From: a virus
Taxonomy: Duplodnaviria > Heunggongvirae > Uroviricota > Caudoviricetes
IMG/VR virus record: IMGVR_UViG_2778261591_000005
Location: 1-11,327 of that record
Reading direction: 5' to 3' (one strand)
Length of the DNA stretch: 11,327 nt
This document shows positions 1 through 11,327 of the stretch, in pieces; the stretch's first letter is position 1; each line of letters starts with the position of its first letter. The notes under the pieces were generated by a model. It saw only the letters and a program-made list of their open reading frames with translations, did no database searches and had not been told where the DNA came from. Position numbers and translations under genes: made by a program.

Positions 1-86
1 TACACCATTTGCTGGGGGTTATCTGATAGATGATTGTCTGCATGCCAACCTCATAAAACTTTCATCCACGGCAGTGGCACCACACT

Positions 87-203
87 TCAAACATTCGCTT
101 CACATCTTCTGTACAACACGGTGTTGTTTATGCAGCGAACAATTTTTACCGGGTAACCGGCACTGTCGGTATACAGTTGTCCCTGATTAATCAGAGCGAA
201 CAT
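87..203 (-). CDS. small hypothetical protein (38 aa from ATG at 203; frame is open upstream to 326)
   Basis: ORF track 87..326 minus. Internal ATG at 203..201 is preceded by AGGAG about 5 nt upstream (gcAGGAGaaaaaATG). The longer form would overlap the 3' end of the upstream ORF by about 90 nt. No recognisable domain. Confidence 0.25.
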   Translation of the reverse strand: MFALINQGQLYTDSAGYPVKIVRCINNTVLYRRCEANV

Positions 204-234
204 TTTTTCTCCTGCTCTCTGAATAGTGAGAACT

Positions 235-618
235 TCAGAGCCGTATGTTTGTAGCGGGTTCAATGCTGATAATTTCTGCTGAGATAAGCATCCCGGCAAG
301 CCAGAGTTCTCCGGACAGGTCTTCATCCTGGCATATCAGTTCGCCAATATTAATGGTGGCCATGATATCCGTTTCCCCTGTGCGCTCATCCAGGGCTTCT
401 TCATAAGGCAGCGTTGCGTACAGGCTTTCAATAGCGCAATTGATAACATCCAGTCCGGTCAGATTGCCGCCGACAGTAACTTCGAATGTTTCGCGGTATT
501 CCCATAGTCCGAAAGTTAATCGAACGGTTTGTTTTGCCATGCGTCCGCACGACGTCAGATTCGGGTCATAGTTCATTATTTGCGGTTGAGTATTCTGGTT
601 GTTCATCTGATTTTCCAT
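235..618 (-). CDS. hypothetical acidic protein, start uncertain
   Basis: ORF track 235..678 minus. The 678 start is GTG with no SD and overlaps the SPFH gene; in-frame ATG at 618 sits just after an intergenic hairpin; alternative ATGs at 606 and 540. Product is rich in E/D (…LPYEEALDERTGETDIMATINIGELICQDEDLSGELW…). No family recognised. Confidence 0.45.
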   Translation of the reverse strand: MENQMNNQNTQPQIMNYDPNLTSCGRMAKQTVRLTFGLWEYRETFEVTVGGNLTGLDVINCAIESLYATLPYEEALDERTGETDIMATINIGELICQDEDLSGELWLAGMLISAEIISIEPATNIRL

Positions 619-621
619 TAA

Positions 622-638
622 CCCGGCGGTTTGCCGGG
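622..638 (-). other. GC-rich intergenic stem-loop between the SPFH gene stop and the next ORF (no U-run, so not a classic terminator)
   Basis: Plus strand reads CCCGGC-ggttt-GCCGGG: 6-bp perfect stem, 5-nt loop, immediately downstream (in transcription sense) of the stop at 647..649. Confidence 0.35.
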
Positions 639-646
639 CGTGTAAG

Positions 647-1474
647 TTATTTAATCTGGATAAATGGTGTATTGGCACCGCTGGTCATGTATTGCGGCAG
701 AGTACCGTTCCACTTGTTGATGGCTTCCAGCTCCATGACGCCAGGGTTCTGGCGCAGAGCTTCACCGCGTAAACGAATAGCATCGGCCTCGGCCTGGGCT
801 TTTGTGCGAATCGCATCTGCCTGTCCGGCAGCTTCCGCGCGCAACATGTTAGCTTCCGCTTCGCGCTGTTTTACTTCCTGTTCGCGTTGCAGGGTTTTCT
901 GGTTCGCCGTGACTTTGGCATTAATGCTGTCGATAACGGTTGGCGGGTACTCCGGCTTACCCACATATGAGAGACTCATTACCTGAATACCGATGGGCGT
1001 CATTTCTGCCTGAATGTCTTTAAGAGCTGCATCCAGTAGTTCAGACTTCCCGCCGTCGATAAATTTGTCAGTGGTCATTTTGCTGGCCAGTCGATTGAGT
1101 GCGTCGGCGATCTTCTGGCGCAGGTCAGTATCGGTAATGTCATCCACGCCTTTGCGGTAGGTCTGAAACACCGTGGTAACTTTGGATGGATCAACTTTGT
1201 AGGCAACACCGATGTGATAGCCAATGGTTGTGCCGTCACTCATCTGGAAGCTGAACGGCTCATCGTAGGTCTTCATTTGTTTGAAGGTTGGGAAGATGTA
1301 AACTTCAGTGTTCCATCCCGTCCAGTAGCGCCCAACACCGACCACTTCACCGACGCCTTTATCGTCGCCAAGTTTGTTTACTTTGATGCCCACATTACCA
1401 GGCTCAACGCGATCGCAACCGACAAGGCCAATGGTCGGCAGAACAAGGGCTAAAGCAAAAAGTAATTTTTTCAT
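647..1474 (-). CDS. SPFH/band-7 (stomatin/prohibitin/HflKC-like) domain lipoprotein
   Basis: 275 aa. N-terminal signal peptide with lipobox (MKKLLFALALVLPTIGLVGC, Cys20). C-terminal Ala/Glu/Arg-rich helical segment typical of SPFH proteins (QREAEANMLRAEAAGQADAIRTKAQAEADAIRLRGEALRQNP). SD AAGGA 4 nt before ATG. Confidence 0.85.
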   Translation of the reverse strand: MKKLLFALALVLPTIGLVGCDRVEPGNVGIKVNKLGDDKGVGEVVGVGRYWTGWNTEVYIFPTFKQMKTYDEPFSFQMSDGTTIGYHIGVAYKVDPSKVTTVFQTYRKGVDDITDTDLRQKIADALNRLASKMTTDKFIDGGKSELLDAALKDIQAEMTPIGIQVMSLSYVGKPEYPPTVIDSINAKVTANQKTLQREQEVKQREAEANMLRAEAAGQADAIRTKAQAEADAIRLRGEALRQNPGVMELEAINKWNGTLPQYMTSGANTPFIQIK

Positions 1475-1659
1475 CTTTTATCCTTAGAAAAAGAAAGACC
1501 CTTATAAATGGCATAAATGCAGGGCGGGGTCAGACACGCCAGAGCAAAGCCAGAAATCACTGCTACCGTATCCTTCATTGATATGAGGGCCGGAACGATT
1601 AATCCGTAAATACATGTGATAATTGCCAGTGATATAACTATTCTGAAATAAATGTTCAT
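1471..1659 (-). CDS. small membrane protein (62 aa, two predicted TM helices), translationally coupled to the SPFH gene
   Basis: Hydrophobic sequence MNIYFRIVISLAIITCIYGLIVPALISM…VAVISGFALACLTPPCIYAIY. CAGGAGG just upstream of ATG at 1659. Its stop overlaps the SPFH start in an ATGA arrangement (1471..1474). Confidence 0.6.
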   Translation of the reverse strand: MNIYFRIVISLAIITCIYGLIVPALISMKDTVAVISGFALACLTPPCIYAIYKGLSFSKDKR

Positions 1660-1719
1660 GGTCCTCCTGATGTATGCGGCTTGCCTTATTTAATTGCGTC
1701 ATGGTTAATTTCGTTTACG

Positions 1720-2112
1720 TCAGAATGGTTTTGTTGCCATCAGTTCGTAATATCCGGCGCTCCATGTGTCATATTTTCTGAACCATTTTTCTGTATACTG
1801 TTTCCTGGCGATGAGTCTGCGCAGTCGTCTGATTGTTCGCTGGTGTGCGCGGGTATACTCTGTGGTTGATTCTCCACGTTTCCATATCTCATTCCCGTTG
1901 AAGATAAAACGCTTGTCAGGATAGCGTTGCCGGAATCCTGAACGTTCAAAAGCGCGGGTGGTCATAAAGAATGCCAGGTAACGAATTGCCGTTTTTCGGG
2001 TGAGGCATTTTTTTGTTCTTCCGTGGCGTGTTACAAAAAATAACGGGCCGACGGGTGTATCATGTTTCTGTAATGCCTGGTCAATGGCGCTGGCGGTGCG
2101 GTTGTCGATCAT
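1720..2112 (-). CDS. hypothetical basic protein (130 aa, Arg/Lys-rich; possibly nucleic-acid binding)
   Basis: GGGAGA SD about 9 nt before ATG at 2112. ATGA overlap with the stop of the upstream ORF 2109..2327. Basic composition (…RRLRRLIARKQYTEKWFRKY…). No family confidently recognised. Confidence 0.6.
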   Translation of the reverse strand: MIDNRTASAIDQALQKHDTPVGPLFFVTRHGRTKKCLTRKTAIRYLAFFMTTRAFERSGFRQRYPDKRFIFNGNEIWKRGESTTEYTRAHQRTIRRLRRLIARKQYTEKWFRKYDTWSAGYYELMATKPF

Positions 2113-2327
2113 TTCTTTATTTCTCCCGAATAACGTTCATGACTCATTACTTCCCAGTTCCGGCCGTCGCCTTTCGATAACAGCCGCCAGCAACGGTTAA
2201 CCTTCAGACTGAGATATCCGGTGCGCTGTATCCGATGCGGAAATATCCGTCGGCATCGGTACAACAACAGGACCTGCAATGCCTGCCGGTGGATCCGCTC
2301 AGGAATGCGTGTTGCTGTTAATGCCAC
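2109..2327 (-). CDS. small Arg-rich hypothetical protein (72 aa, GTG start)
   Basis: Strong SD (tCAGGAGGaaaccgGTG) and ATGA coupling to the downstream 130-aa gene. Composition is unusual (R/W/C-rich), so coding status is uncertain. Confidence 0.4.
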   Translation of the reverse strand: MALTATRIPERIHRQALQVLLLYRCRRIFPHRIQRTGYLSLKVNRCWRLLSKGDGRNWEVMSHERYSGEIKK

Positions 2328-2514
2328 CGGTTTCCTCCTGAGCAGGTGCTGTTATCTGATACCCCGCTCTTTCTGCCAGCCGTATGAATGTATCCATGCT
2401 GGCAATCAGCTCGCCATCGCGGACTTTGCAGACACCTGTGACTTGGCCATTTTCAATTGTCATAACGATCTGCACTTTTTCGCGCACAACAGATACAGGG
2501 GATAAATTAGCCAT
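2299..2514 (-). CDS. hypothetical protein (71 aa)
   Basis: GGAGG SD about 9 nt before ATG at 2514. Start overlaps the stop of the upstream gene by 8 nt (coupled). Confidence 0.55.
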   Translation of the reverse strand: MANLSPVSVVREKVQIVMTIENGQVTGVCKVRDGELIASMDTFIRLAERAGYQITAPAQEETGGINSNTHS

Positions 2515-2872
2515 CAGTTAATTCCTCCACTGGTATATTTTCTTTCGCGTAATCAATAACCTCTTGAAAAAGGTTGTCTATAATTAACTTTCCGGTTTCA
2601 GCCAGGTATTCAGTATGTTGATTAATCCCGATAGCATTCTGGTATGCAGTGTGGATTTCGGTTTCACCCTCCACCCGGCCCAATTCACCACGGGTAATAC
2701 CTTCGAAGCGTAACAGCAACTGGTTTATAAACTGTTCAGTTATTTCTATAGTCGCAATGTTCCCATCCGGAAGGTCAACAATAAGCAGATTACCACCTGT
2801 TTTACGTTTTATTCGATGGAGTGCCGCAACAGCTATACGGCGACGATATGTATTAATGGGTTCATATGCCAT
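2507..2872 (-). CDS. hypothetical protein with Arg-rich N-terminus; first gene of the leftward operon (lambda N-like position, function unproven)
   Basis: 121 aa. Residues 8-24 are TYRRRIAVAALHRIKRK, followed by an acidic C-terminal half. Located just left of a roughly 200-bp intergenic region. Confidence 0.6.
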   Translation of the reverse strand: MAYEPINTYRRRIAVAALHRIKRKTGGNLLIVDLPDGNIATIEITEQFINQLLLRFEGITRGELGRVEGETEIHTAYQNAIGINQHTEYLAETGKLIIDNLFQEVIDYAKENIPVEELTDG

Positions 2873-2875
2873 TTG

Positions 2876-2989
2876 TTATTTCCCGTATGCTTTACGCAGA
2901 AACAAGCAGGCAATATGCATGTAATTTTTACCGTGTTGTGCAATAAGACAGGCCGTTTTGTGTGATGCCTTATGTTTTATAAAAGTCAT
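2876..2989 (-). CDS. possible leader/upstream small ORF (37 aa, basic)
   Basis: Hand-translated (below the ORF-track size cut-off): MTFIKHKASHKTACLIAQHGKNYMHIACLFLRKAYGK. GGAGG SD 7 nt before ATG at 2989. Its stop TAA lies one codon before the ATG of the 121-aa gene. Confidence 0.25.
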   Translation of the reverse strand: MTFIKHKASHKTACLIAQHGKNYMHIACLFLRKAYGK

Positions 2990-3071
2990 AATAATGCCTC
3001 CAGTGGATTAAGTGTGTGATAATCCCCGGCGATTAAGCCGTAATATATTATTCGGAGATAACTTGTTTTAT

Positions 3072-3272
3072 TTAACTGGATAGTTCTTTTTCAGATGCTG
3101 CTTCAGCATAGCAACGTGCAAATTCAAGAACTTCATCACCTGTTCTTTTTATTGCGTCGTTGTCTGACATTTGTAGTACGATAACTGCGCATAATAAATT
3201 ATGGATATTGTTTGCAAAGGAATCCGGTGCTAGGCATAAGCCTTCATACTTATCATGGATATTGCCAGTCAT
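3072..3272 (-). CDS. small protein (66 aa), paralog of the N-terminal domain of the adjacent tandem-HTH protein
   Basis: ATG at 3272 with AAGGAG 8 nt upstream (the track's GTG at 3314 gives a longer form). Shares DSFA-NI-NLL-AV … G-EV-EF--YA--AAS with residues about 27-75 of the 230-aa protein. Confidence 0.6.
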   Translation of the reverse strand: MTGNIHDKYEGLCLAPDSFANNIHNLLCAVIVLQMSDNDAIKRTGDEVLEFARCYAEAASEKELSS

Positions 3273-3277
3273 TGTTG

Positions 3278-3970
3278 CTACTCCTTTGCTTCTGATTTTC
3301 CCGTTAACAACCACATCAGGTCACAATTAAGCGCACTGGCCAGTGGTACTATCTGATCAGCAGGAACTTCACAGGTGCCGCATTCCCAGTCGTTTATGGG
3401 GTCGCTGTAGGTGTGAATCATGCGTGCCAGGTCTGCTTCTGTTAAGCCCAGTTTTTTACGGGCGCTTTTGATGCGCGCACCAATATTTTCCACATGGACT
3501 TCAGGCGCATTTACGCGAATAACTGACTCGCTGTTTTTTTCACTCAGCAGAGAAAGCGGATCGCATCCCAGGACGTTTGCCAGGGGGGTAAGCATGCTGA
3601 TGGTTGGCTCGTACTCTCCACTCTCCCATTGCAGAATAATTTCTTCATCAAGATCGAGTAGTCTGGCAAGTTCGGTGGTCGTTAAGCCGCAGGCTTCGCG
3701 TTGAGTGCGAAGGTTAACCAGCCAGCTTTCAGGGAAGGATTGTTTTTGTTGTGCAGGAGAAGCCGCAGATAGAGCATATTCATGGATAAATTCCATTACC
3801 TCAATGCCCAGTTCCTTTGAGCGAGCACAATCCAGAAGATGGAATGTGCGTACAGCACTTAGCAAATTTGCAATATTTAATGCAAAGGAATCAAGTTCTA
3901 AGCCCTTAAGCGAAACACAGCCGCAGTTGATAAGATTAGTTGTTTCTGGAGTTGCGTTTAGTGTCTTCAT
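3278..3970 (-). CDS. transcriptional regulator with N-terminal domain of unknown function plus two tandem XRE-family HTH domains
   Basis: 230 aa. HTH1: LRTQREACGLTTTELARLLDLDEEIILQWESGEYEPTISMLTPLANVLGCDPLSLL. HTH2: IGARIKSARKKLGLTEADLARMIHTYSDPINDWECGTCEVPADQIVPLASALNCDLMWLLTG. Own promoter upstream and terminator-insulated from the cI-like gene. Confidence 0.8.
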   Translation of the reverse strand: MKTLNATPETTNLINCGCVSLKGLELDSFALNIANLLSAVRTFHLLDCARSKELGIEVMEFIHEYALSAASPAQQKQSFPESWLVNLRTQREACGLTTTELARLLDLDEEIILQWESGEYEPTISMLTPLANVLGCDPLSLLSEKNSESVIRVNAPEVHVENIGARIKSARKKLGLTEADLARMIHTYSDPINDWECGTCEVPADQIVPLASALNCDLMWLLTGKSEAKE

Positions 3971-4023
3971 ATATCCACCAACAATTTTAAATTGAATAAA
4001 ATCAAGTTATAATTGATGGTGCG

Positions 4024-4052
4024 ATATTATGCTTTGAAAAACAGGCTGTCAA
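4024..4052 (-). promoter_or_regulatory. sigma70-type promoter for the tandem-HTH gene
   Basis: Minus strand TTGACA (4052..4047), 17-nt spacer, TAATAT (4029..4024). Predicted start near 4017, giving a leader of about 47 nt to ATG at 3970. Confidence 0.5.
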
Positions 4053-4082
4053 GAAAAAATTGATATCGTATATTTTAGGCAG

Positions 4083-4103
4083 AAAAAAACGGGCAAAGCC
4101 CGT
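4083..4103 (-). terminator. intrinsic terminator after the cI-like gene
   Basis: Minus strand: stem CGGGC/GCCCG with 3-nt loop followed by a run of 6-7 U (plus strand AAAAAAA-CGGGC-AAA-GCCCG-T). Lies 13 nt beyond the cI-like stop. Confidence 0.55.
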
Positions 4104-4115
4104 TAAAATCAAAGA

Positions 4116-4805
4116 CTAACCAAATCTGTTTATATTGAATGGTACTGATGAGATCACTTTAGACTGGATATAAAGCAGAGCTAACCCCTCTTTTTCGATG
4201 CTCCATGGTTGATAATTAGGGTTATCAGATAACACCATGATTTTACTTCCAATTTTTTGAAGTCTTTTCACGTAGCATTCTCCATCAAAACAAAATGCAT
4301 AAATGCCATCGCCATCAAAATAAGTTACTGTCTTATCGAGAAAAAGAAGGTCGCCAGGTGAGATTGTGGGAGCCATACTGTCTCCTCTGGCGTTACCTAT
4401 TTCTATATTTTTGAATGCCCGATTTCCAACAAGACGTCGGGCATATTCAGGATCAAGTTCTATTGAGCGCACTACATCTATCAAGTCACCACGGACATGA
4501 GTTCCATCACCGCAACTAAACTCAACATCAAGGACATTAAACACGACGCTATCTGTTCTTGTCTGGAGTTTCTCTTGCGAGGAAAAGGTTGGTGAGGAGT
4601 CTTCGCCTAAGAACCAAGATTGTGGATAACCGCTAATCTCTGATAAATGCGCGAGCTTATCACTTCGTGGAAATGTTTTTCCTGTTGTCCAGTACTGCAC
4701 TGATTGCGCACTCACACCTAACTTGCGGGCCAGTTGAGCCTGAGTCCATCCTTTTGCTTTCAGCATCGCGGCTATTCGATTTTCCGTGTTTTTGACGTTC
4801 TTCAT
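4116..4805 (-). CDS. cI-like prophage repressor (N-terminal HTH, C-terminal S24/LexA-type autopeptidase domain)
   Basis: HTH: GWTQAQLARKLGVSAQSVQYW. S24 catalytic motifs: GDSMAPTISPGDLLFLDK (Ser) and YVKRL (Lys) about 36 aa later. Possible Cys-Gly cleavage site in FSCGDG. ATG at 4805 preferred over the TTG at 4811 used by the track. Confidence 0.9.
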   Translation of the reverse strand: MKNVKNTENRIAAMLKAKGWTQAQLARKLGVSAQSVQYWTTGKTFPRSDKLAHLSEISGYPQSWFLGEDSSPTFSSQEKLQTRTDSVVFNVLDVEFSCGDGTHVRGDLIDVVRSIELDPEYARRLVGNRAFKNIEIGNARGDSMAPTISPGDLLFLDKTVTYFDGDGIYAFCFDGECYVKRLQKIGSKIMVLSDNPNYQPWSIEKEGLALLYIQSKVISSVPFNINRFG

Positions 4806-4938
4806 GACCAAATCCTGTGGGTTTCTTTACAAGGATAAATCTTTACTTGATTTTAGTGTATTCGATCCTTTTGCAACTTGCATGTTAATTTAAACTTGAT
4901 GTATTCTTGATTTATAAAGTTAATATTGGTGATTTGTT
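4806..4938. promoter_or_regulatory. divergent promoter/operator region of the cI-like/Cro-like switch
   Basis: 133-bp AT-rich spacer between divergent genes. Three copies of an 11-bp motif: ACTTGATTTTA (4845..4855), ACTTGATGTAT (4894..4904), TCTTGATTTAT (4905..4915), the last two in tandem. Palindromic TGCAA-c-TTGCA at 4871..4881. Candidate rightward promoter TTAAAC-N17-TATAAA (4890..4918). Confidence 0.5.
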
Positions 4939-5211
4939 ATGAAAGGAAATGATTACGACAAACTTCGTACATTAATTGCGCAAAATGCCATAGCGCGAAA
5001 TCTTGGTGTGACGCCGCAAGCGGTGAATCAGTGGTTTTCAAAAAACACAATTCCTGCTCGTTTTGTTTTACGCGTATGTGAAGTAGTTGCATGGAAGGTC
5101 ACGCCACATGACTTAAGGCCAGATCTTTATCCTCACCCTGAAGATGGAATTCCTGATTCGTTACGCAAAATTTCAAATCCAAGCCTAGCGCACACGGAAG
5201 ATGGGAAGTGA
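4939..5211 (+). CDS. Cro-like HTH regulator (YdaS/DUF1019-type)
   Basis: 90 aa. HTH LGVTPQAVNQWFSKNTIP followed by the family-typical VTPHDLRPDLYP motif. Divergent from the cI-like gene. Confidence 0.85.
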   Translation: MKGNDYDKLRTLIAQNAIARNLGVTPQAVNQWFSKNTIPARFVLRVCEVVAWKVTPHDLRPDLYPHPEDGIPDSLRKISNPSLAHTEDGK

Positions 5212-5281
5212 TGGTGGTGATATGAGCGAAAAAATAACTATTAAATACGATGGGACAACCATTTCGATTGCCCCGATCACA

Positions 5282-5575
5282 TTAGCGTTCGCTGAGAAGT
5301 TGTTGGTAAGCCTTAAAGGATGCGAACTGCATTCTACCTTCGGCATTGATTCCAATGCCTTCGCTTGTACACCAAGCGATGAACTCGGCTGTATCCGCTT
5401 CAACTTTAATAACTCGTTGCCCGCCTCTTTCGACACGCTTAATCAATTTTTCAGCGTCGTGTTTCCACTCGGTGTAACTGTCGGAGAGCACATCAGCATC
5501 AGTAAAAATATTTTTGAGCTCATGATACTGAATCGCATCGCGAAACCAGAATAAACCAACGGCCTGAACTTTCAT
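5282..5575 (-). CDS. hypothetical protein (97 aa), orphan gene convergent with the Cro-like gene
   Basis: Strong SD (AAGGAGGttcgacATG). Protein-like composition (MKVQAVGLFWFRDAIQYHELKNIFTDADVLSDSYTEWKHDAEKLIKRVERGG…). Opposite orientation to the flanking rightward operon. Confidence 0.65.
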   Translation of the reverse strand: MKVQAVGLFWFRDAIQYHELKNIFTDADVLSDSYTEWKHDAEKLIKRVERGGQRVIKVEADTAEFIAWCTSEGIGINAEGRMQFASFKAYQQLLSER

Positions 5576-5688
5576 GTCGAACCTCCTTTGGTTCTTTTGT
5601 TTATAGGGATCAAAAGGATAACTGAAGGAAGGTTCGGCACCAATAAGTACGAATGTGCGGAATCTTAAAAGAATTTATCCGTAAGGAG

Positions 5689-6402
5689 ATGGCAGTGAAC
5701 ACCGCAATTTTTAACGGCAAAGCATCCATGACCAGCCTTGAAATCGCAGAGCTGGTGGGTAGTCAGCACTCAGATGTTAAACGTAGTATCGAACGCCTGG
5801 TTGCTAAAAACATCATCCGGAAACCGCCAATGGCTGTTTCCGAGAAAATCAATAACTTAGGTTTTAAAGTTCAATATGAGCATTACCTGTTTGAAGGAGA
5901 ACAAGGTAAACGCGACAGCATCATTGTCGTCGCTCAGCTCTGCCCTGAATTCACTGCTCGCCTGGTAGATCGCTGGCGCGAACTGGAAGAACAGATCCGT
6001 AAGCCAATGAGCGAAATCGAAATGGTTGCCGCGATGGCTCTTGAAGCTGTTCGTCAGCAGAAACGGATCACTCAGGTGGAAGAAAAAGTCAGCCACGTTG
6101 CCGAAACAGTTGAGCAAATCAAAAAGGGCACCATTCGTGAGGGCTATGCCGGATATCGCCAACTGAAAGCGAAAACCGGTTTGTCAGATGATAAATGCCG
6201 CAATCTGGTGAACGCTTATCAAATTCCTACAGACACCCATGAGTTCATGACGCCGGACGGATTGTTGTCACGTCGCGCAATTGTTGCCGTGGAACCTTTT
6301 ATGGCTGCTTTTTATCGGGTTATGGAGGAAGCAGAACCGCGAGGGACTCGCTGGTATCACCCGAAAATGGGGTTATTTCAGGTTATTGGTTGGCAGCGGT
6401 GA
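5689..6402 (+). CDS. Rha-family phage regulatory protein (paralog 1)
   Basis: N-terminal motif TSLEIAELVGSQHSDVKRSIERL matches the Rha-type signature. Start ambiguous: ATG 5653, ATG 5689 (AAGGAG directly abutting) or GTG 5695 (6-nt spacing). Confidence 0.7.
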   Translation: MAVNTAIFNGKASMTSLEIAELVGSQHSDVKRSIERLVAKNIIRKPPMAVSEKINNLGFKVQYEHYLFEGEQGKRDSIIVVAQLCPEFTARLVDRWRELEEQIRKPMSEIEMVAAMALEAVRQQKRITQVEEKVSHVAETVEQIKKGTIREGYAGYRQLKAKTGLSDDKCRNLVNAYQIPTDTHEFMTPDGLLSRRAIVAVEPFMAAFYRVMEEAEPRGTRWYHPKMGLFQVIGWQR

Positions 6403-6425
6403 AAAAAAGCCGGGAGTAACCCGGC
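6402..6425 (-). terminator. intrinsic terminator oriented for minus-strand transcription
   Basis: Minus strand: GCCGGG-uuacu-CCCGGC followed by UUUUUUU. On the plus strand the hairpin is preceded by A7 and not followed by a T-run, so it is unidirectional leftward. Confidence 0.55.
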
Positions 6426-6624
6426 TCACTCAACATCAATAACGGGGAGCTGTTTCGCATAAAACGGCTCCGAAACATCCAAGAACAGTTCTAAAGATAT
6501 CAGCAGCTATATGATCATTTCAAGACCAAATATTGATTCTGCAATTTCGGGACGTTACACTGTCTCTGCACCTTATAAAGCGGGTGCCGGGGGTCGCAGC
6601 CCGGAATTGTCAACGGCGATATAT

Positions 6625-6644
6625 GACGCGCCAGCGTCTTTTTT
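6625..6644 (+). terminator. candidate intrinsic terminator or attenuator on the plus strand between the two Rha-like genes
   Basis: GACGC-gcca-GCGTC followed by TTTTTT. Stem is short (5 bp) but GC-rich. Confidence 0.4.
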
Positions 6645-6810
6645 ATCGTCCGCGCTCACGCACGCCAGAATTATGGTGGGCTGGGCAGGGGAGCCGAAAG
6701 GCTCGCCGGTCTCCGTTGACGCCGGTACTGCGAACCCTGTTCAGTCTGCCACCAGTGAGTTTCGCAGCTCCGGTGGTGGAAGTTTTCCACAGTCAACGGA
6801 GGCTGCCATC

Positions 6811-7362
6811 ATGGCTACGATCCCAACCCTCACTCAACCTGAAATTGCCATCGTTGATGGTCAGGCTGTTACTTCATCCCTGGCTGTTGCCAATTTCTTC
6901 TCCAAGCGTCATGACGATGTACTGAAAAAGATCCGCACGCTTGAATGCTCCGCATCATTCACTGCCCGCAATTTTTCGGTGAGTGATTACACCGATTGCA
7001 CAGGCCGCAAACTACCTTGCTATCAAATCACCCGTGATGGCTTCGCGTTCCTTGCTATGGGCTTTACTGGCAAACGTGCAGCCCGGTTCAAAGAGGCATA
7101 CATCAACGCCTTTAACCAGATGGAGAAGAATTTATCTGGTGCTGACGCGGTTGATATGTCAGCTGTCGCACGAAACGCCAGAGGCGTATACCTGCATTTG
7201 CGTGAAATCCATCAAATCTGGACAAGCCAGCTTTATCCAATGCTTAAGGCCATTGAATCTCCGCTGGCTAGCAAACTGTACGACCGTGTTGGTGATGCTG
7301 TTTTTGGCGCTGCACTTGTTGATTCCAGGCTGAATGGTTCTGACAAGGAGGTTCGCCCATGA
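6811..7362 (+). CDS. Rha-family phage regulatory protein (paralog 2)
   Basis: Motif TSSLAVANFFSKRHDDVLKKIRTL. ATG at 6811 with GGAGG 9 nt upstream. The track's longer ORF from 6511 has a low-complexity G/S/A/P-rich N-terminal extension judged non-coding. Confidence 0.8.
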   Translation: MATIPTLTQPEIAIVDGQAVTSSLAVANFFSKRHDDVLKKIRTLECSASFTARNFSVSDYTDCTGRKLPCYQITRDGFAFLAMGFTGKRAARFKEAYINAFNQMEKNLSGADAVDMSAVARNARGVYLHLREIHQIWTSQLYPMLKAIESPLASKLYDRVGDAVFGAALVDSRLNGSDKEVRP

Positions 7363-7553
7363 TTAGTTACGAAATCATCATCTCCACTACGGAATACAGA
7401 AACGATGTATCAGTTCGCACGGATGTATCTGTCTGGCACCGTCGCTATAAATCCAGAAAAACAGCGGAACTGAAAGCGGCAGAGATGTGTGAAACCATCT
7501 CAATGAAAGGTAGCCCGGTTAAATACGTAACTACGGCGGAGGTGCGTCCATGA
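7359..7553 (+). CDS. hypothetical small protein (64 aa)
   Basis: AAGGAGG 8 nt upstream. ATGA overlap with the Rha paralog 2 stop. Confidence 0.55.
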   Translation: MISYEIIISTTEYRNDVSVRTDVSVWHRRYKSRKTAELKAAEMCETISMKGSPVKYVTTAEVRP

Positions 7554-7774
7554 TCCGCCACATCGTTAATTCCCTGTATCACCGATACAACCGTTGCCCC
7601 CGAGTGGGGCAGTGGTTCGCCACCAGCAACGGTCACGTTCTGCGGGTTTGCCTAGTCAACGCTGAAAGCCAGAAAGTCGTGTGCGAACTACAGGGGCGTA
7701 GCTACACCATCAGTTACCCTCTGGCGGTATTTCTGTCTGGAAAAATGTTTAAACGCCTGGGAGGTGTGTTATGA
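7550..7774 (+). CDS. hypothetical small protein (74 aa)
   Basis: GGAGG upstream. ATGA overlaps at both ends (coupled to the previous ORF and to the O-like gene). Confidence 0.55.
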   Translation: MIRHIVNSLYHRYNRCPRVGQWFATSNGHVLRVCLVNAESQKVVCELQGRSYTISYPLAVFLSGKMFKRLGGVL

Positions 7775-8580
7775 GCATGGAGCTGATGGTGAAAGCGATG
7801 AAAATTCGTGTGGGAAATCCGTTGCGAAAACTGGTTCTGATTAAGCTGGCTGATAATGCCAGCGATCAGGGCGAGTGCTGGCCCAGCTATCAGCATATTG
7901 CTGATCAGTGCGAGATTAGCAAACGTTCTGTGATGAATCATATTACGGCTCTTTGTGAATCTGGACTGGTAAAAAAAGTTTCCCGGAAAGGTGAAAAAGG
8001 TAACTCAAGTAATATCTATCTCCTTCATCTGGATGGTGCAGGAGATTCACTAGGGGGTAGTGCAAATAATTCACTATCTGGTGCAGCAAATTCACCAGGT
8101 AGTGCAGGAGTTGCACCAGGGGGTAGTGCAGGAGATTCACCCAGAACCAGTCACTCTTTTGAACCAGTCAAAGAACCAGTCAATGAATCAACTATTGGCG
8201 CATCCGCTGACGCGTCTGCACCAGCGCGTTCTGCCAGACAGGAATATTCACCGGAATTTGAACAGGCCTGGCAGGAATATCCCAAACGTGCTGGTGGTAA
8301 TTCCAAGTCAGCAGCCTTCAAAGCCTGGAAAGCCCGTATCAGGGAAGGTGTGACACCCGAAACCATGCTCAACGGTGTGAAACGCTATGCCGCCTGGGTG
8401 CGTGTCTCAGGAAATACCGGCACCCAGTTCGTGAAGCAGGCATCGACGTTCTTTGGCCCCGATCGGCACTTTGACGAATCCTGGCAACAGTCAGCAGCTC
8501 CCGGAGGTGGGCGGGGCAAAAGCCTCCCGATCTCGGGATTCAGTGAACAGGACTACGGCTCAACGAACTTCAACTGGTGA
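7771..8580 (+). CDS. phage replication initiator (lambda O-like; N-terminal HTH domain, low-complexity linker, C-terminal domain)
   Basis: N-terminal LRKLVLIKLADNASDQGECWPSYQHIADQCEISKRSVMNHITALCESGLV, a replisome-organiser type HTH. Central G/S/A-rich linker is encoded by iteron DNA. GGAGG SD. Followed by helicase loader and helicase genes. Confidence 0.85.
   Translation: MSMELMVKAMKIRVGNPLRKLVLIKLADNASDQGECWPSYQHIADQCEISKRSVMNHITALCESGLVKKVSRKGEKGNSSNIYLLHLDGAGDSLGGSANNSLSGAANSPGSAGVAPGGSAGDSPRTSHSFEPVKEPVNESTIGASADASAPARSARQEYSPEFEQAWQEYPKRAGGNSKSAAFKAWKARIREGVTPETMLNGVKRYAAWVRVSGNTGTQFVKQASTFFGPDRHFDESWQQSAAPGGGRGKSLPISGFSEQDYGSTNFNW
8034..8140. repeat. iterons (putative origin of replication) inside the O-like gene
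   Basis: Five roughly 20-bp direct repeats with 21-24 bp period (consensus about GGTAGTGCAGGAGATTCACC) at 8034, 8055, 8079, 8098 and 8121. Confidence 0.7.
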
Positions 8581-8597
8581 TTTTGTGGGGTGTGAAA

Positions 8598-9488
8598 ATG
8601 ATTAATTTCCTGAACAAACAACACATGCAACACGACAAAGCGCAATTACTCAACCGCAGTGCGGAGCTGGAGGAGGAGATGCAGTTTGCCCGTGCCGGGA
8701 AGCGTCCGTGGCGCTGTGAGCACTGGCTGGCAAGCGATGAGACTGCAGAGTGTGAGAAGCACGGAAAATATACTCGTCTGGTGTTGAAAGGGCCAGATAT
8801 TCGCGGAGAAACCATCAAACGGGTATCCGGATGTCCGCGCTGCATCGCAGAAGAACTGGATCACGTGCATGACGAATTACGCGCCCTGAAGGTTCGTGAA
8901 TTACTCGATCAGGCCGGTATTGCCCGCCGCTTTGAGAACTGCGAGTTTGAGAACTATCAGGCTGTGAATGCCGGGGCTCAGCGGAATCTTGATGCCTGCC
9001 AGCGTTATGTCGATGCCTGGAAGGATCACCTCGCGGCGGGTACCAGCATGATCATGATTGGCAATTGCGGTACCGGGAAAAATCACCTGGCTGTATCAAT
9101 GGCAAAAAATATTATTCGCCACCACCTGGCGACCGTCGAAATTACGGATGTTATGCGACTGACCCGCGCTGTGAAAAATACATGGCGTCACAATTCTGAA
9201 CGCACTGAAGATGAAGTTATTGACCATTTTGTATCACTGGACCTGCTCATCATTGATGAAGTCGGTGTTCAGTTTGGCACTCCTGCCGAGATAACCATCC
9301 TGCAGGAAATCATCAACGCGCGTTACGAAAGTATTCTGCCAACAATTCTGATCAGCAACCTGACGTTTGACCAGCTTAAGGAGTCCATTGGTGAGCGAAT
9401 TGTAGATCGCGTTACTGACGGCGGGCGTAACCGCCTGGTGTTTGGCTGGGAGAGCTACCGGGCAAATATCGGAGGTGTTGCCGCATGA
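8598..9488 (+). CDS. DnaC/IstB-like AAA+ helicase loader
   Basis: Walker A GNCGTGKNHLA, Walker B LLIIDEVG, sensor ISNLT. N-terminal region carries Cys/His pairs (CEH…CEKH…CPRC) suggesting a zinc-binding module. Start is ATG 8598 or GTG 8577 (overlapping the O-like stop). Confidence 0.85.
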   Translation: MINFLNKQHMQHDKAQLLNRSAELEEEMQFARAGKRPWRCEHWLASDETAECEKHGKYTRLVLKGPDIRGETIKRVSGCPRCIAEELDHVHDELRALKVRELLDQAGIARRFENCEFENYQAVNAGAQRNLDACQRYVDAWKDHLAAGTSMIMIGNCGTGKNHLAVSMAKNIIRHHLATVEITDVMRLTRAVKNTWRHNSERTEDEVIDHFVSLDLLIIDEVGVQFGTPAEITILQEIINARYESILPTILISNLTFDQLKESIGERIVDRVTDGGRNRLVFGWESYRANIGGVAA

Positions 9489-10885
9489 CCAGCCAGAACA
9501 ACCCGGCATGGCGTAACGATGACCTGGAAGGTGCGGTGATTGGCGCGTTTTTTCTGCGTGGGGCTGATCCGGAAGTGATGGATATTCTGGCCACGCTTCC
9601 GGCGGATGTATTTTTCGTGCGTCAGTACCGGGATATTTACGCGGGGATTTGCAGACAGGCCCGCGTATCCGGCGTCATTGACCCCGTGCTGCTGTGCAAT
9701 GAGATGCCGGAACTTGCCCCGGTGATTACCGACACCGGGCGCAAAACCTGGGTGAAGTCTTCACTGGAGCACTATGTTGCAGCGCTGCGACGCAATGCCG
9801 CACTGCGCGATGCAGAAAAAACACTGACTGAAGCATTACAGAATTTACGTGATGCACATACCTGCGAAGCGGCAGAAGATGCCCTGAAGGATGCGCAGAA
9901 CATGATGGCCTCACTGTCGACCGGAAAGGGCGTCATTCAGCCGGTTCACATTGATGATGTCCTTCCGGAAGTGGTCGACCGTGTTGAATGCCGCAATCAG
10001 GGACTGGAGAAATCCAGGGCGCTGATGACCGGTATTGATGAACTGGACGCAAAAACGGGCGGTATGGAGCCCGGAGACCTGGTATTCATTGCCGCCCGTC
10101 CTTCGATGGGGAAAACCGAACTTGCGCTGGACATCATCGACAAGGTGACTGAGCAGGGGCATGGCGTGCTTCTGTTCACCATGGAGATGGCGAACATCCA
10201 GATTGGTGAACGTATGGTGTCTGCTGCCGGTGGAATGCCGGTATCCCGTCTTAAGTCTGTTGCCCGTTTTGAAGATGAAGACTGGGCGCGTTTCTCACAG
10301 GGCGTGGGACGAATGACGGGGCGTAATATCTGGATGGTGGACCAGGCAAATCTGACCATTGATGAGATATGTGCAACCACGAGGTACCACCGGATGAAGC
10401 ATCCGGAAACGGCGCTGGTGGTGGTCGATTACCTCGGCCTGATTAAAACCCGCAGCACGGGGCGTCACGACCTTGCGGTGGGGGAAATCTCAAAGGGACT
10501 TAAAAGCCTGGCAAAATCCGGCGGTTTTCCGCTGATTGCTCTGAGCCAGCTCTCCCGCGGCGTGGAATCCAGACCCAATAAACGTCCCATGAACTCAGAC
10601 CTGAAAAACTCCGGGGAAATCGAGGCTGATGCCGACATCATTCTGATGCTTTACAGGGATGAGGTGTATAACCCGGATACACAGGCGAGAGGCATAGCAG
10701 AAATCAACATCACGAAACAGCGTAATGGCACGCTCGGGACCATTTACCGGCGTTTTCATAACGGACATTTTCTGCCTGTGGACCAGGAGAGTGCCCGGGT
10801 TCTTTCCACACCCATGACGCCGGGCAATCCGCGCAGATACAGCAATAACCGCATGTCGGGCAGTAAAGCGGAGCGTTTATTTTGA
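9485..10885 (+). CDS. DnaB-family replicative DNA helicase
   Basis: 466 aa. Walker A ARPSMGKT, Walker B VVVDYLGLI, ALSQLSR arginine-finger region, and the DnaB signature DLKNSGEIEADADIILMLYRDEVY. ATGA overlap with the loader gene. Confidence 0.92.
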   Translation: MTSQNNPAWRNDDLEGAVIGAFFLRGADPEVMDILATLPADVFFVRQYRDIYAGICRQARVSGVIDPVLLCNEMPELAPVITDTGRKTWVKSSLEHYVAALRRNAALRDAEKTLTEALQNLRDAHTCEAAEDALKDAQNMMASLSTGKGVIQPVHIDDVLPEVVDRVECRNQGLEKSRALMTGIDELDAKTGGMEPGDLVFIAARPSMGKTELALDIIDKVTEQGHGVLLFTMEMANIQIGERMVSAAGGMPVSRLKSVARFEDEDWARFSQGVGRMTGRNIWMVDQANLTIDEICATTRYHRMKHPETALVVVDYLGLIKTRSTGRHDLAVGEISKGLKSLAKSGGFPLIALSQLSRGVESRPNKRPMNSDLKNSGEIEADADIILMLYRDEVYNPDTQARGIAEINITKQRNGTLGTIYRRFHNGHFLPVDQESARVLSTPMTPGNPRRYSNNRMSGSKAERLF

Positions 10886-11139
10886 ATAACAGAACAGCCA
10901 CTGTTTCACCGGAACAACTTCGTCGCCAGGCGCAGGAGATGCTTCGTTGTGCTGAACAGATGGAAAAAATGAGCGTGGCAAAGGATACGCTCCGCAAGCA
11001 GCTTACTCCGGCGCTTCGTGATCTGCTGCAGGCAAAACACCGCACACAAAAGGCGGTGGATGAGCTGGTGGATTGCGTGGCGGAACTGGAAGGCAAGGTA
11101 AGCCAGTTTGAAACTCTGGTGAAGGAGTTTACTGCGTGA
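10882..11139 (+). CDS. hypothetical small coiled-coil protein (85 aa, TTG start overlapping the helicase stop)
   Basis: Helical and charged (…LRRQAQEMLRCAEQMEKM…VDELVDCVAELEGKVSQFETLVKEF). Internal ATG at 10939 is an alternative start. Confidence 0.45.
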   Translation: MNNRTATVSPEQLRRQAQEMLRCAEQMEKMSVAKDTLRKQLTPALRDLLQAKHRTQKAVDELVDCVAELEGKVSQFETLVKEFTA

Positions 11140-11190
11140 TGGCTGAATTTTTTCTCCTGTGTTCATGCAATATCGTTCGCTGAGGTGACC

Positions 11191-11327
11191 GTGAGAGCAT
11201 TGTTGACTCCTGAAATTGCCCCGCGAATGGGGATTGTATTGTTCAGACCCGGTTCAGAGCTGATGCCCCTGTTTATGCAGGGGCGTGTCCTGCTGGAGCC
11301 TGAGCCGGAACGTTATTCATCTTTCGC
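11191..11327 (+). CDS. possible 5' end of a further gene running off the window
   Basis: Frame opens at 11140 right after the stop of the 85-aa ORF and remains open to the window end (…VTVRALLTPEIAPRMGIVLFRPGSELMPLFMQGRVLLEPEPERYSSF). Candidate GTG at 11191 with GAGG upstream. Not in the ORF track because it is truncated. Confidence 0.2.
   Translation, partial: MRALLTPEIAPRMGIVLFRPGSELMPLFMQGRVLLEPEPERYSSF

Follow-up and report, generated by a model that had tools for sequence, protein, structure and literature searches.

The window analyzed here is the 11,327-nucleotide stretch covering positions 1 to 11,327 of IMG/VR virus record IMGVR_UViG_2778261591_000005 (Caudoviricetes), and the subject is a pair of minus-strand genes lying downstream of its cI-type repressor gene. 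Gene 1 (3278..3970) encodes 230 amino acids and falls in PHROG family phrog_4836 (E=3e-94), which carries the label 'CII-like regulator', and gene 2 (3072..3272) encodes a free helical hairpin of 66 amino acids in family phrog_4587 (E=8e-36). Pfam detects HTH_3/HTH_19 helix-turn-helix (HTH) domains at residues 87-138 and 164-227 of gene 1, with an HTH_3 score of 58.4 bits against a cut-off of 23, and finds no match in gene 1 residues 1-80 or in gene 2. The N-terminal domain of gene 1 is a hairpin that we call type A (3755..3901, minus strand, residues ~24-72). It is followed by the XRE-type domain HTH1 (3548..3727, minus strand, residues 82-141), which is near-invariant across immunity types, and by the XRE-type domain HTH2 (3302..3484, minus strand, residues 163-223), which is present in some alleles only and has the DNA-binding domains of the 434 and P22 C2 repressors as its nearest matches.

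A preliminary description made from the sequence had placed both open reading frames (ORFs) on the minus strand at these positions, had given gene 1 two XRE HTH domains, and had presented the pair as a regulator-like protein accompanied by a small paralog of its non-HTH domain. The Pfam and BLASTP results bear this out. Gene 2 and the gene 1 hairpin are identical at 21 of 44 positions (E=3e-8, BLASTP), and the PHROG profiles match in both directions: gene 1 residues 24-72 match the small-protein families phrog_4587 (7e-7) and phrog_5451 (6.5e-6), and gene 2 matches phrog_4836, the family of gene 1, at 1.4e-5.

The mechanically called ORF of gene 2 spans 3072..3314 and gives 80 amino acids from a GTG start, and the ATG at 3272 gives the 66-residue product that is also the annotated form in related phages. 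This ATG has a Shine-Dalgarno sequence, AAGGAG, 8 nt upstream (3281..3286, minus strand), which lies within the final codons of gene 1. With a gap of 5 nt between the gene 1 stop and the gene 2 ATG, gene 2 is tightly coupled to gene 1. When gene 2 was compared with a 121-residue relative, the rate of synonymous substitution (dS) was saturated (2.1), and the nonsynonymous rate (dN) was 0.41. The resulting dN/dS of 0.19 at saturated dS marks gene 2 as a genuine coding gene.

The AlphaFold2 model of gene 2 has a predicted local confidence (pLDDT) of 90, with a short extended segment followed by helices at residues 16-34 and 39-65. The gene 1 model has a mean pLDDT of 73 and a predicted template modeling score (pTM) of 0.33, and consists of three independent domains joined by flexible linkers, one of which separates HTH1 from HTH2. 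The termini are disordered (residues 1-23 at the N-terminal end), and the hairpin occupies residues 26-69 (helices 26-45 and 49-69).

Control region and leftward operon

The repressor gene (4116..4805, or to 4811, minus strand) encodes 229 amino acids from its ATG and has HTH_3 and Peptidase_S24 domains. A scan confirmed the two signals that had been described between cI and gene 1. The first is an intrinsic terminator on the minus strand (4088..4104), with a 7-bp GC-rich stem and a T-run, at which the cI transcript ends before the gene 1 promoter is reached. The second is that promoter, a leftward sigma-70 promoter, TTGACA-N17-TAATAT (4024..4052, minus strand), which agrees with the consensus at 10 of 12 positions and which we read as the equivalent of pL. 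Promoter-like matches are not in excess in this AT-rich region (5 observed, 6.1 expected in shuffled sequences), and the promoter is credible because its position is conserved in relatives rather than because of its consensus match. TTGACA or TTGCCA, a 17-nt spacer and a -10-like hexamer are found there in more distant cI relatives as well as in immunity types A, A2, B, D and E.

Two operator-like 17-mers accompany the promoter. One, GTCAAGAAAAAATTGAT (4048..4064), overlaps the -35 hexamer and belongs to direct-repeat family D2, and the other, ATCAAGTTATAATTGAT (4001..4017), lies directly downstream of the -10 hexamer near the expected transcription start. The control region between cI and the divergent cro-like gene (4939..5211, YdaS/P22_Cro) spans 4835..4911 and holds three ATCAAG-containing 17-mers (4835-4851, 4884-4900 and 4895-4911). 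The 4001-4017 site is complementary to sites in this region (inverted repeats I1, I4 and I6). The half-site ATCAAG/CTTGAT has three further copies between cI and cro (4846, 4895 and 4906). The CTTGAT repeats, already remarked on in the preliminary description, are real and enriched, as 4 of the 10 copies in the window fall within the two control regions (Poisson P ~1e-5, hexamer enrichment).

When hexamer enrichment was calculated for the control regions against the rest of each locus, the word common to both control regions differed between immunity types: ATCAAG in types A and A2, GTATCA in type B, TAGCGA / AGCGAT in type E, and ATAGAA / TAGAAC in type C, with a weaker signal in type D. Longest-shared-word and 7-mer counts between the control regions were too noisy for judging operator co-variation. 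In relatives with a ~80% identical cI and the same recognition helix, both sites are perfect palindromes, ATCAAGTTTAACTTGA(C/T), at the -35 hexamer and the start site, and the perfect palindromes ATCAAGTTTAACTTGAT occupy the same two positions. Because the gene 1 HTH is invariant while the words vary with cI and cro, the sites are best read as operators for the repressor and Cro, and not as sites for gene 1. With operator-like sites at its -35 hexamer and start site, the promoter should be off in the lysogen, and we regard it as a pL/oL-type promoter that is probably repressed in lysogens, judging from where the sites lie.

The gene 1 leader (3976..4019, minus strand) also contains an inverted repeat, ACCATCAATT...AATTGTTGGT, which includes the start-site operator and whose 3' arm abuts the GGTGGA ribosome-binding site. 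The corresponding RNA hairpin has a predicted energy of -11.6 kcal/mol (z=-2.2), and as 5 of 200 shuffles were equally good, its significance is marginal.

Downstream of gene 2, no promoter or terminator was found by scan on the minus strand of window positions 1..3100. As no such signal intervenes before position 1, the pair appears to head a leftward early operon and is not the self-contained unit that had been proposed. In the complete relative LC567830, which has a short left arm, the leftward string runs from gene 1 and gene 2 through a few small genes and a gene for an SPFH protein to xis and int. N, cII and cIII are not annotated in LC567830, and no cII follows cro in the window. Going by gene order, the pair sits where lambda has N, rather than in the place of rexAB.

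Further genes of the leftward operon encode an SPFH/Band-7 protein (647..1474, minus strand, 275 amino acids) with a lipoprotein-like N-terminus and a membrane protein of 62 amino acids, whose gene (1471..1659, minus strand) overlaps that of the former. In records of Shiga toxin (Stx) phages, these two genes carry the annotation 'serine protease'. If the SPFH protein were an HflK/C-like modulator of FtsH, it would be of interest in a phage without cIII. An ORF of 37 amino acids with a GGAGG ribosome-binding site (2876..2989, minus strand) occupies the space between gene 2 and its downstream neighbor; one relative has it annotated, and distant relatives have conserved it (C-terminus ...LRKAYGK/R).

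Collectively, we hold with good confidence, from the sequence and arrangement of the locus, that the pair leads, under the control of the repressor, the early-left operon of an N-less prophage of the Shiga-toxin type. The pair would then be silent in the lysogen and be produced immediately upon infection or induction. The earlier proposal of an exclusion module equivalent to rexAB, taken as expressed in the lysogen, does not fit this locus as judged in silico, where the cI transcript ends at a terminator and the promoter carries immunity-specific operator words. Neither protein shows homology to RexA, RexB or a catalogued defence protein in PADLOC, Pfam or NCBIfam. That the pair could be such a self-contained exclusion, defence or toxin-antitoxin module is very improbable: it does lie downstream of cI on the same strand, in a slot where lambdoid phages commonly carry defence genes, and has its own promoter, but this promoter is flanked by operators, the pair is not insulated downstream and heads an operon ending in xis-int, half of gene 1 lies in the immunity cassette, PADLOC has no match for gene 2 and nothing beyond generic HTH matches for gene 1, no toxin family is matched, and gene 2 shares its fold with the regulator.

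Immunity cassette and hairpin family

The promoter belongs to an immunity cassette (~3712..5682), a block that is swapped between phages. When the window was compared with five other immunity types (B, C, D and E among those), homology stopped at 3707-3720 and resumed at 5669-5693. Inside the cassette lie cI, cro and a minus-strand ORF of 97 amino acids, together with the promoter, its operators and the part of gene 1 that encodes the hairpin. The left edge of the cassette is exactly the junction between the hairpin and HTH1 of gene 1. The 97-residue ORF (5282..5575, minus strand; phrog_4753, no function assigned), which runs antisense to the rightward operon, combines a strong AAGGAGG ribosome-binding site with a terminator-like hairpin (5274..5252) and is missing in several relatives.

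To place gene 1 among its relatives, 88 loci were surveyed (80 IMG/VR contigs, seven phage records and the window). In all 88, the start of the gene 1 homolog lies 98-245 nt downstream of an S24-type repressor, and the type of the N-domain tracks the cI cluster (A/A2 with cI1, B with cI3, C with cI4, D with cI5 and E with cI2). Linkage alone may be sufficient for this co-variation of hairpin type and cI. HTH1, which is encoded outside the cassette, has 37 invariant columns (alignment A1). Within the cassette dS is saturated, and the hairpin has a dN of 0.36 (dN/dS 0.19) against 0.087 for the cI N-domain and 0.011 for the cI C-domain, so that it evolves ~4-30 times faster than cI. Cro, with 81-90% identity across these types, is likewise better conserved than the hairpin. 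From type A to type A2, the hairpin retains 54% identity, against 99% for the cI C-domain and 81% for Cro. By these substitution rates the hairpin is under purifying selection. Positive selection was considered and is not supported, with dN/dS values of 0.19-0.5 at saturated dS.

The hairpin is an unnamed domain family with a clear sequence signature, F/Y-x-G-L-x-L-x-P-D-x-h-x-x-N-h ... G ... E-Y-A, found in the small proteins and in N-domain types A, A2, C and D. In the hairpin alignment, G11, L14, N22 and Y55 are nearly or fully invariant, and N22, L26, G45 and Y55 of the small protein are conserved when it is aligned with the gene 1 hairpin. The domain precedes one, two or three HTH domains, stands alone in free proteins of 60-80 amino acids, or forms the C-terminus of proteins resembling L08 of phage phiP27. 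Type B, its relatives and type E, searched as one combined profile, have no detectable homology to the hairpin (hhalign probability 0.6%), and the similarity of type-B N-domains to the small protein that had been perceived by eye is rejected by the same comparison.

That the N-domain belongs to no named family, as first suggested, agrees with every search that was made. Eight N-domain variants and L08 had no Pfam match, and the hairpin had none in NCBIfam or PADLOC. Gene 2 matched nothing in Pfam, NCBIfam, PADLOC or toxin families, and the PADLOC matches of gene 1 were all of the generic HTH kind. The hairpin had no meaningful match in a profile search of PDB sequences, and the 66-residue model had no fold match in PDB or BFVD at E<=0.001, as expected for a two-helix hairpin. 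PHROG families exist for both genes, but without a function, and neither Pfam nor NCBIfam has a model for the hairpin. No functional or experimental study of gene 1 or gene 2 turned up in literature searches, and no experimental basis was found for the 'CII-like' PHROG label.

More distant relatives were sought by a deep profile search of 1.84 billion representative proteins. Since the profile (137 positions) kept the HTH columns, most of the 1180 matches were generic HTH proteins, and we relied solely on those that fell within positions 1-72. Seven more distant loci again have a hairpin(-HTH) gene directly after the repressor. The expectation that the two genes travel together was largely upheld, as a free family-1 hairpin gene lies downstream within 1.5 kb in 77 of the 88 close loci and within ~1 kb in five of the seven distant loci. 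It failed in the remaining 11 of 88, which have no small homolog within 1.5 kb.

Alleles of gene 1 with one HTH are followed by a 121-residue protein of the phiP27 L08 family (phrog_5451), whose C-terminal ~58 residues are identical or near-identical to the gene 2 protein, and whose full-length form has an additional N-terminal domain of 55 amino acids. The 66-residue form occurs only behind gene 1 alleles with two HTH domains or frameshifted or atypical derivatives of these (35/35 loci). On this distribution, gene 2 is a 5'-truncated L08 gene travelling with the HTH2-coding segment. In one IMG/VR contig (L009), a 100% identical hairpin is part of a gene 1 of only 147 amino acids (4001..4444), with the 66-residue gene 255 nt further on; a frameshift or faulty assembly probably accounts for the short gene 1.

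The HTH domains of gene 1 are unusual in their charge. Gene 1 has a pI of 4.7 and a net charge of -14. HTH1 (pI 4.05) has an acidic 'recognition helix', LDEEIILQWESGE, with D-E-E where 434, P22 C2 and the cI of this phage have base-contacting residues, and HTH2 (pI about 5) retains a basic first helix. Among the 29 homologs sampled (P0011-P0274), 25 have a full-length pI of 4.3-5.3 (range 4.3-7.05), and the median pI of the HTH domains in the family is 4.75. The HTH domains of cI, cro, 434 and P22 have pI values of 9.7-10.2.

Elsewhere in the window, on the plus strand, Rfam detects the Hfq-binding RNA isrK (6568..6644, 58.7 bits) and a C4 antisense RNA (6669..6756, 78.8 bits), both above the gathering score. 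A terminator-like hairpin at 6625-6638 ends isrK, and the two RNAs lie directly upstream of an Ant-like ORF (in-frame ATG at about 6811, ORF end 7362). By its layout this looks like a c4-ant antirepressor control unit of the P1/P7 immI type, situated in the rightward operon.

Possible roles of the pair

As the best explanation overall, we tentatively combine the early-left leader role with association of the two proteins through their hairpins. Gene 1 would be a modular switch-proximal protein, in which a variable hairpin encoded by the cassette is joined to acidic XRE HTH domains (one or two) that hardly vary and whose coding sequence lies outside it. The hairpin would act as an oligomerization or partner-binding module, since a very hydrophobic two-helix hairpin would not be stable alone. 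The conserved HTH part would engage a target common to all immunity types, either a DNA site outside the cassette or a protein, the latter being considered because of the acidity. Gene 2 would work via hairpin contacts, by forming mixed oligomers with gene 1 or by competing for the partner of the hairpin, and might thereby tune gene 1 in the manner of SinI/SinR or AimX/AimC. A small helical phage antirepressor that blocks repressor oligomerization offers a precedent (bioRxiv 10.1101/2025.11.23.689978). The specific step in which gene 2 acts on gene 1 through the common hairpin is doubtful.

Several observations weigh against the combined explanation. The same small protein (95-100% identical) also follows type B and type E gene 1, whose N-domains as one combined profile are without detectable homology to it, so that it is found behind N-domain types A, A2, B and E. 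One type-B gene 1 is accompanied by an L08 protein whose hairpin resembles type C. In this context (P0158) the hairpin types of the two genes did not match, and the types do not co-vary. Being constant across the N-domain types of gene 1, the small protein is not co-adapted to the hairpin of its neighbor. The L089 lineage has as its first gene a hairpin without any HTH, and the small homolog is missing from the 11 loci mentioned above. Relatives with a ~80% identical cI and the same operators have an unrelated small first gene instead. Additionally, because the acidity is family-wide, DNA binding by gene 1 is not assured, and a protein target is a live alternative. A partnership is therefore possible in this phage, where both genes belong to family 1, but it is not a general rule. 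The relatives with the unrelated first gene are IMG/VR contigs (L161-L170; ~80% cI, perfect palindromes), in which the first early-left gene encodes 104-107 amino acids (phrog_2583) or 55 amino acids and is followed by several further small, apparently helical proteins.

These same observations lend themselves to an explanation in which the early-left leader role is kept and the two proteins act independently, the hairpin being a shuffled domain and gene 2 having a host or phage target of its own. We regard this as rather unlikely, albeit a serious contender. It would accommodate the identical small protein beside types A, A2, B and E, the family-2 N-domains that are not detectably homologous to it, the L08 with a type-C-like hairpin alongside a type-B gene 1, and the full-length form with its extra domain of 55 residues. 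Stand-alone hairpins in tandem or without an HTH gene (L089, L090) fit as well, and the joint inheritance of HTH2 and the 66-residue gene is explained by physical contiguity. Independent action is harder to reconcile with the invariant G11, N22 and Y55, which are common to both contexts and suggest a common contact surface, and with the near-universal adjacency and translational coupling of the genes.

The PHROG label raises the alternative of a lysogeny-establishment pair resembling CII and CIII. In such a pair, gene 1 would be an unstable protein that activates repressor and integrase expression early, and gene 2 would protect it by competing for a protease that recognizes the common hairpin. 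The missing cII after cro in the window and in the annotation of the complete relative, the SPFH/Band-7 (HflK/C-like) protein in the same operon and the disordered termini of gene 1 are all in keeping with such a role. However, gene 1 has no match to Pfam Phage_CII and lies left of cI instead of after cro, the label has no experimental basis that we could find, no candidate for an activated promoter was identified, the HTH domains are acidic, and the small protein does not track the hairpin type. We therefore consider a CII/CIII-like pair improbable.

Gene 1 might also be an immunity-specific antirepressor or commitment factor, whose hairpin recognizes the cognate CI (or Cro) and whose acidic HTH-fold domains block the DNA-binding surface of the repressor, giving positive feedback once pL fires. 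The location of the hairpin inside the cassette, its tracking of the cI cluster in 88/88 loci, the uniform acidity of the family against the basic HTH domains of cI, cro, 434 and P22 C2 (pI 9.7-10.2), the position of gene 1 as the first gene behind the operators and the existence of hairpin-only first genes would all suit this role. But linkage alone explains the co-variation, the ~80%-cI relatives have unrelated first genes behind the same operators, and the phage already has a C4-controlled Ant. The contrast between types A and A2 (hairpin 54%, cI C-domain 99%, Cro 81%) further argues that change in the hairpin is not driven by its supposed partner. Such a factor thus appears quite improbable.

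A broader form of the same thought is that, in Stx-type phages lacking N, cII and cIII, the hairpin is a third specificity component of the switch and the first early-left protein an immunity-specific commitment factor, which we offer as a speculation with little likelihood. If true, this factor would be an antirepressor or co-regulator working by protein contacts, with the acidic pseudo-HTH domains as effector, and free hairpin proteins, gene 2 included, would modulate it.

Occurrence and comparison with known systems

The pair occurs in 22 deposited phages, nearly all of them Stx1- or Stx2-converting, and in 163 of 5426 complete E. coli genomes, many of enterohemorrhagic serotypes, including O103:H2 12009, O111:H- 11128, O145:H28 and O45:H2. 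In the E. coli genomes, the two genes are annotated as 'helix-turn-helix domain-containing protein' and 'hypothetical protein'. As Stx2_14040, the Eru7 representative (PMC8951638), is among the matches, the phages carrying the pair correspond by sequence to the Eru7 type (Eru7/phiP27-type Stx phages). Eru7-type Stx phages are particularly widespread among European Shiga toxin-producing E. coli (PMC8951638). The same study describes a 'CI clade VIII' of Stx phages without an S24 peptidase domain and with an extra HTH domain (PMC8951638), and this clade may consist of tandem-HTH proteins of the gene 1 type that were mistaken for the repressor.

The complete relative has no annotated N, cII or cIII, and the lysogeny/lysis decision of these phages sets the output of Shiga toxin. 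If the pair is the early-left leader, the first protein made when the repressor fails would be a hairpin-HTH protein half encoded by the cassette. Any effect of gene 1 on the stability of lysogeny would bear on toxin production, and also on cross-talk among co-resident prophages with the same invariant HTH.

By analogy, the architecture resembles known regulator/antagonist pairs, and the promoter is of a known kind. The direct homologs are L10 and L08 of phiP27 and the PHROG families 4836, 4739, 4587 and 5451. L10 consists of a type-B hairpin and HTH1, and the C-terminal domain of L08 corresponds to gene 2. Unlike in phiP27, gene 1 of the window has a second HTH and L08 is reduced to its hairpin.

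Like SinR/SinI of Bacillus subtilis and AimC/AimX (bioRxiv 10.1101/2025.11.23.689978), the pair combines an XRE-HTH regulator that has a helical oligomerization domain with an adjacent small all-helical homolog or mimic, the heteromer being a proposal here. However, the hairpin sits at the N-terminus here instead of the C-terminus, gene 1 has two HTH domains, both acidic, and the small protein does not co-vary with the hairpin of the regulator and also accompanies unrelated N-domains. There is also no sequence relation to Pfam SinI, and no Pfam, PDB sequence or fold match.

The position of the pair downstream of cI on the same strand recalls lambda rexAB. In the lambda lysogen rexAB is transcribed together with cI, whereas in the window a terminator and a promoter bearing operators separate the pair from cI, and the pair has no homology to rexAB. 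The resemblance to lambda pL/oL is closer in layout, with a leftward early promoter just past the end of cI that shares operators with the pR/pRM region and heads an operon ending in xis-int. Compared with lambda, the left operon is very short, two operators ~47 bp apart replace three adjacent ones, and the first gene has no arginine-rich motif and is not an N homolog. As in imm21-type exchanges, the 5' part of the first gene lies in the immunity-specific region. Finally, despite having no homology to MOR of TP901-1 and a separate Cro homolog beside it, the pair is similar to this and other small antirepressors in that an HTH-fold or small helical protein heads the lytic transcript and may act through protein contact rather than DNA binding.

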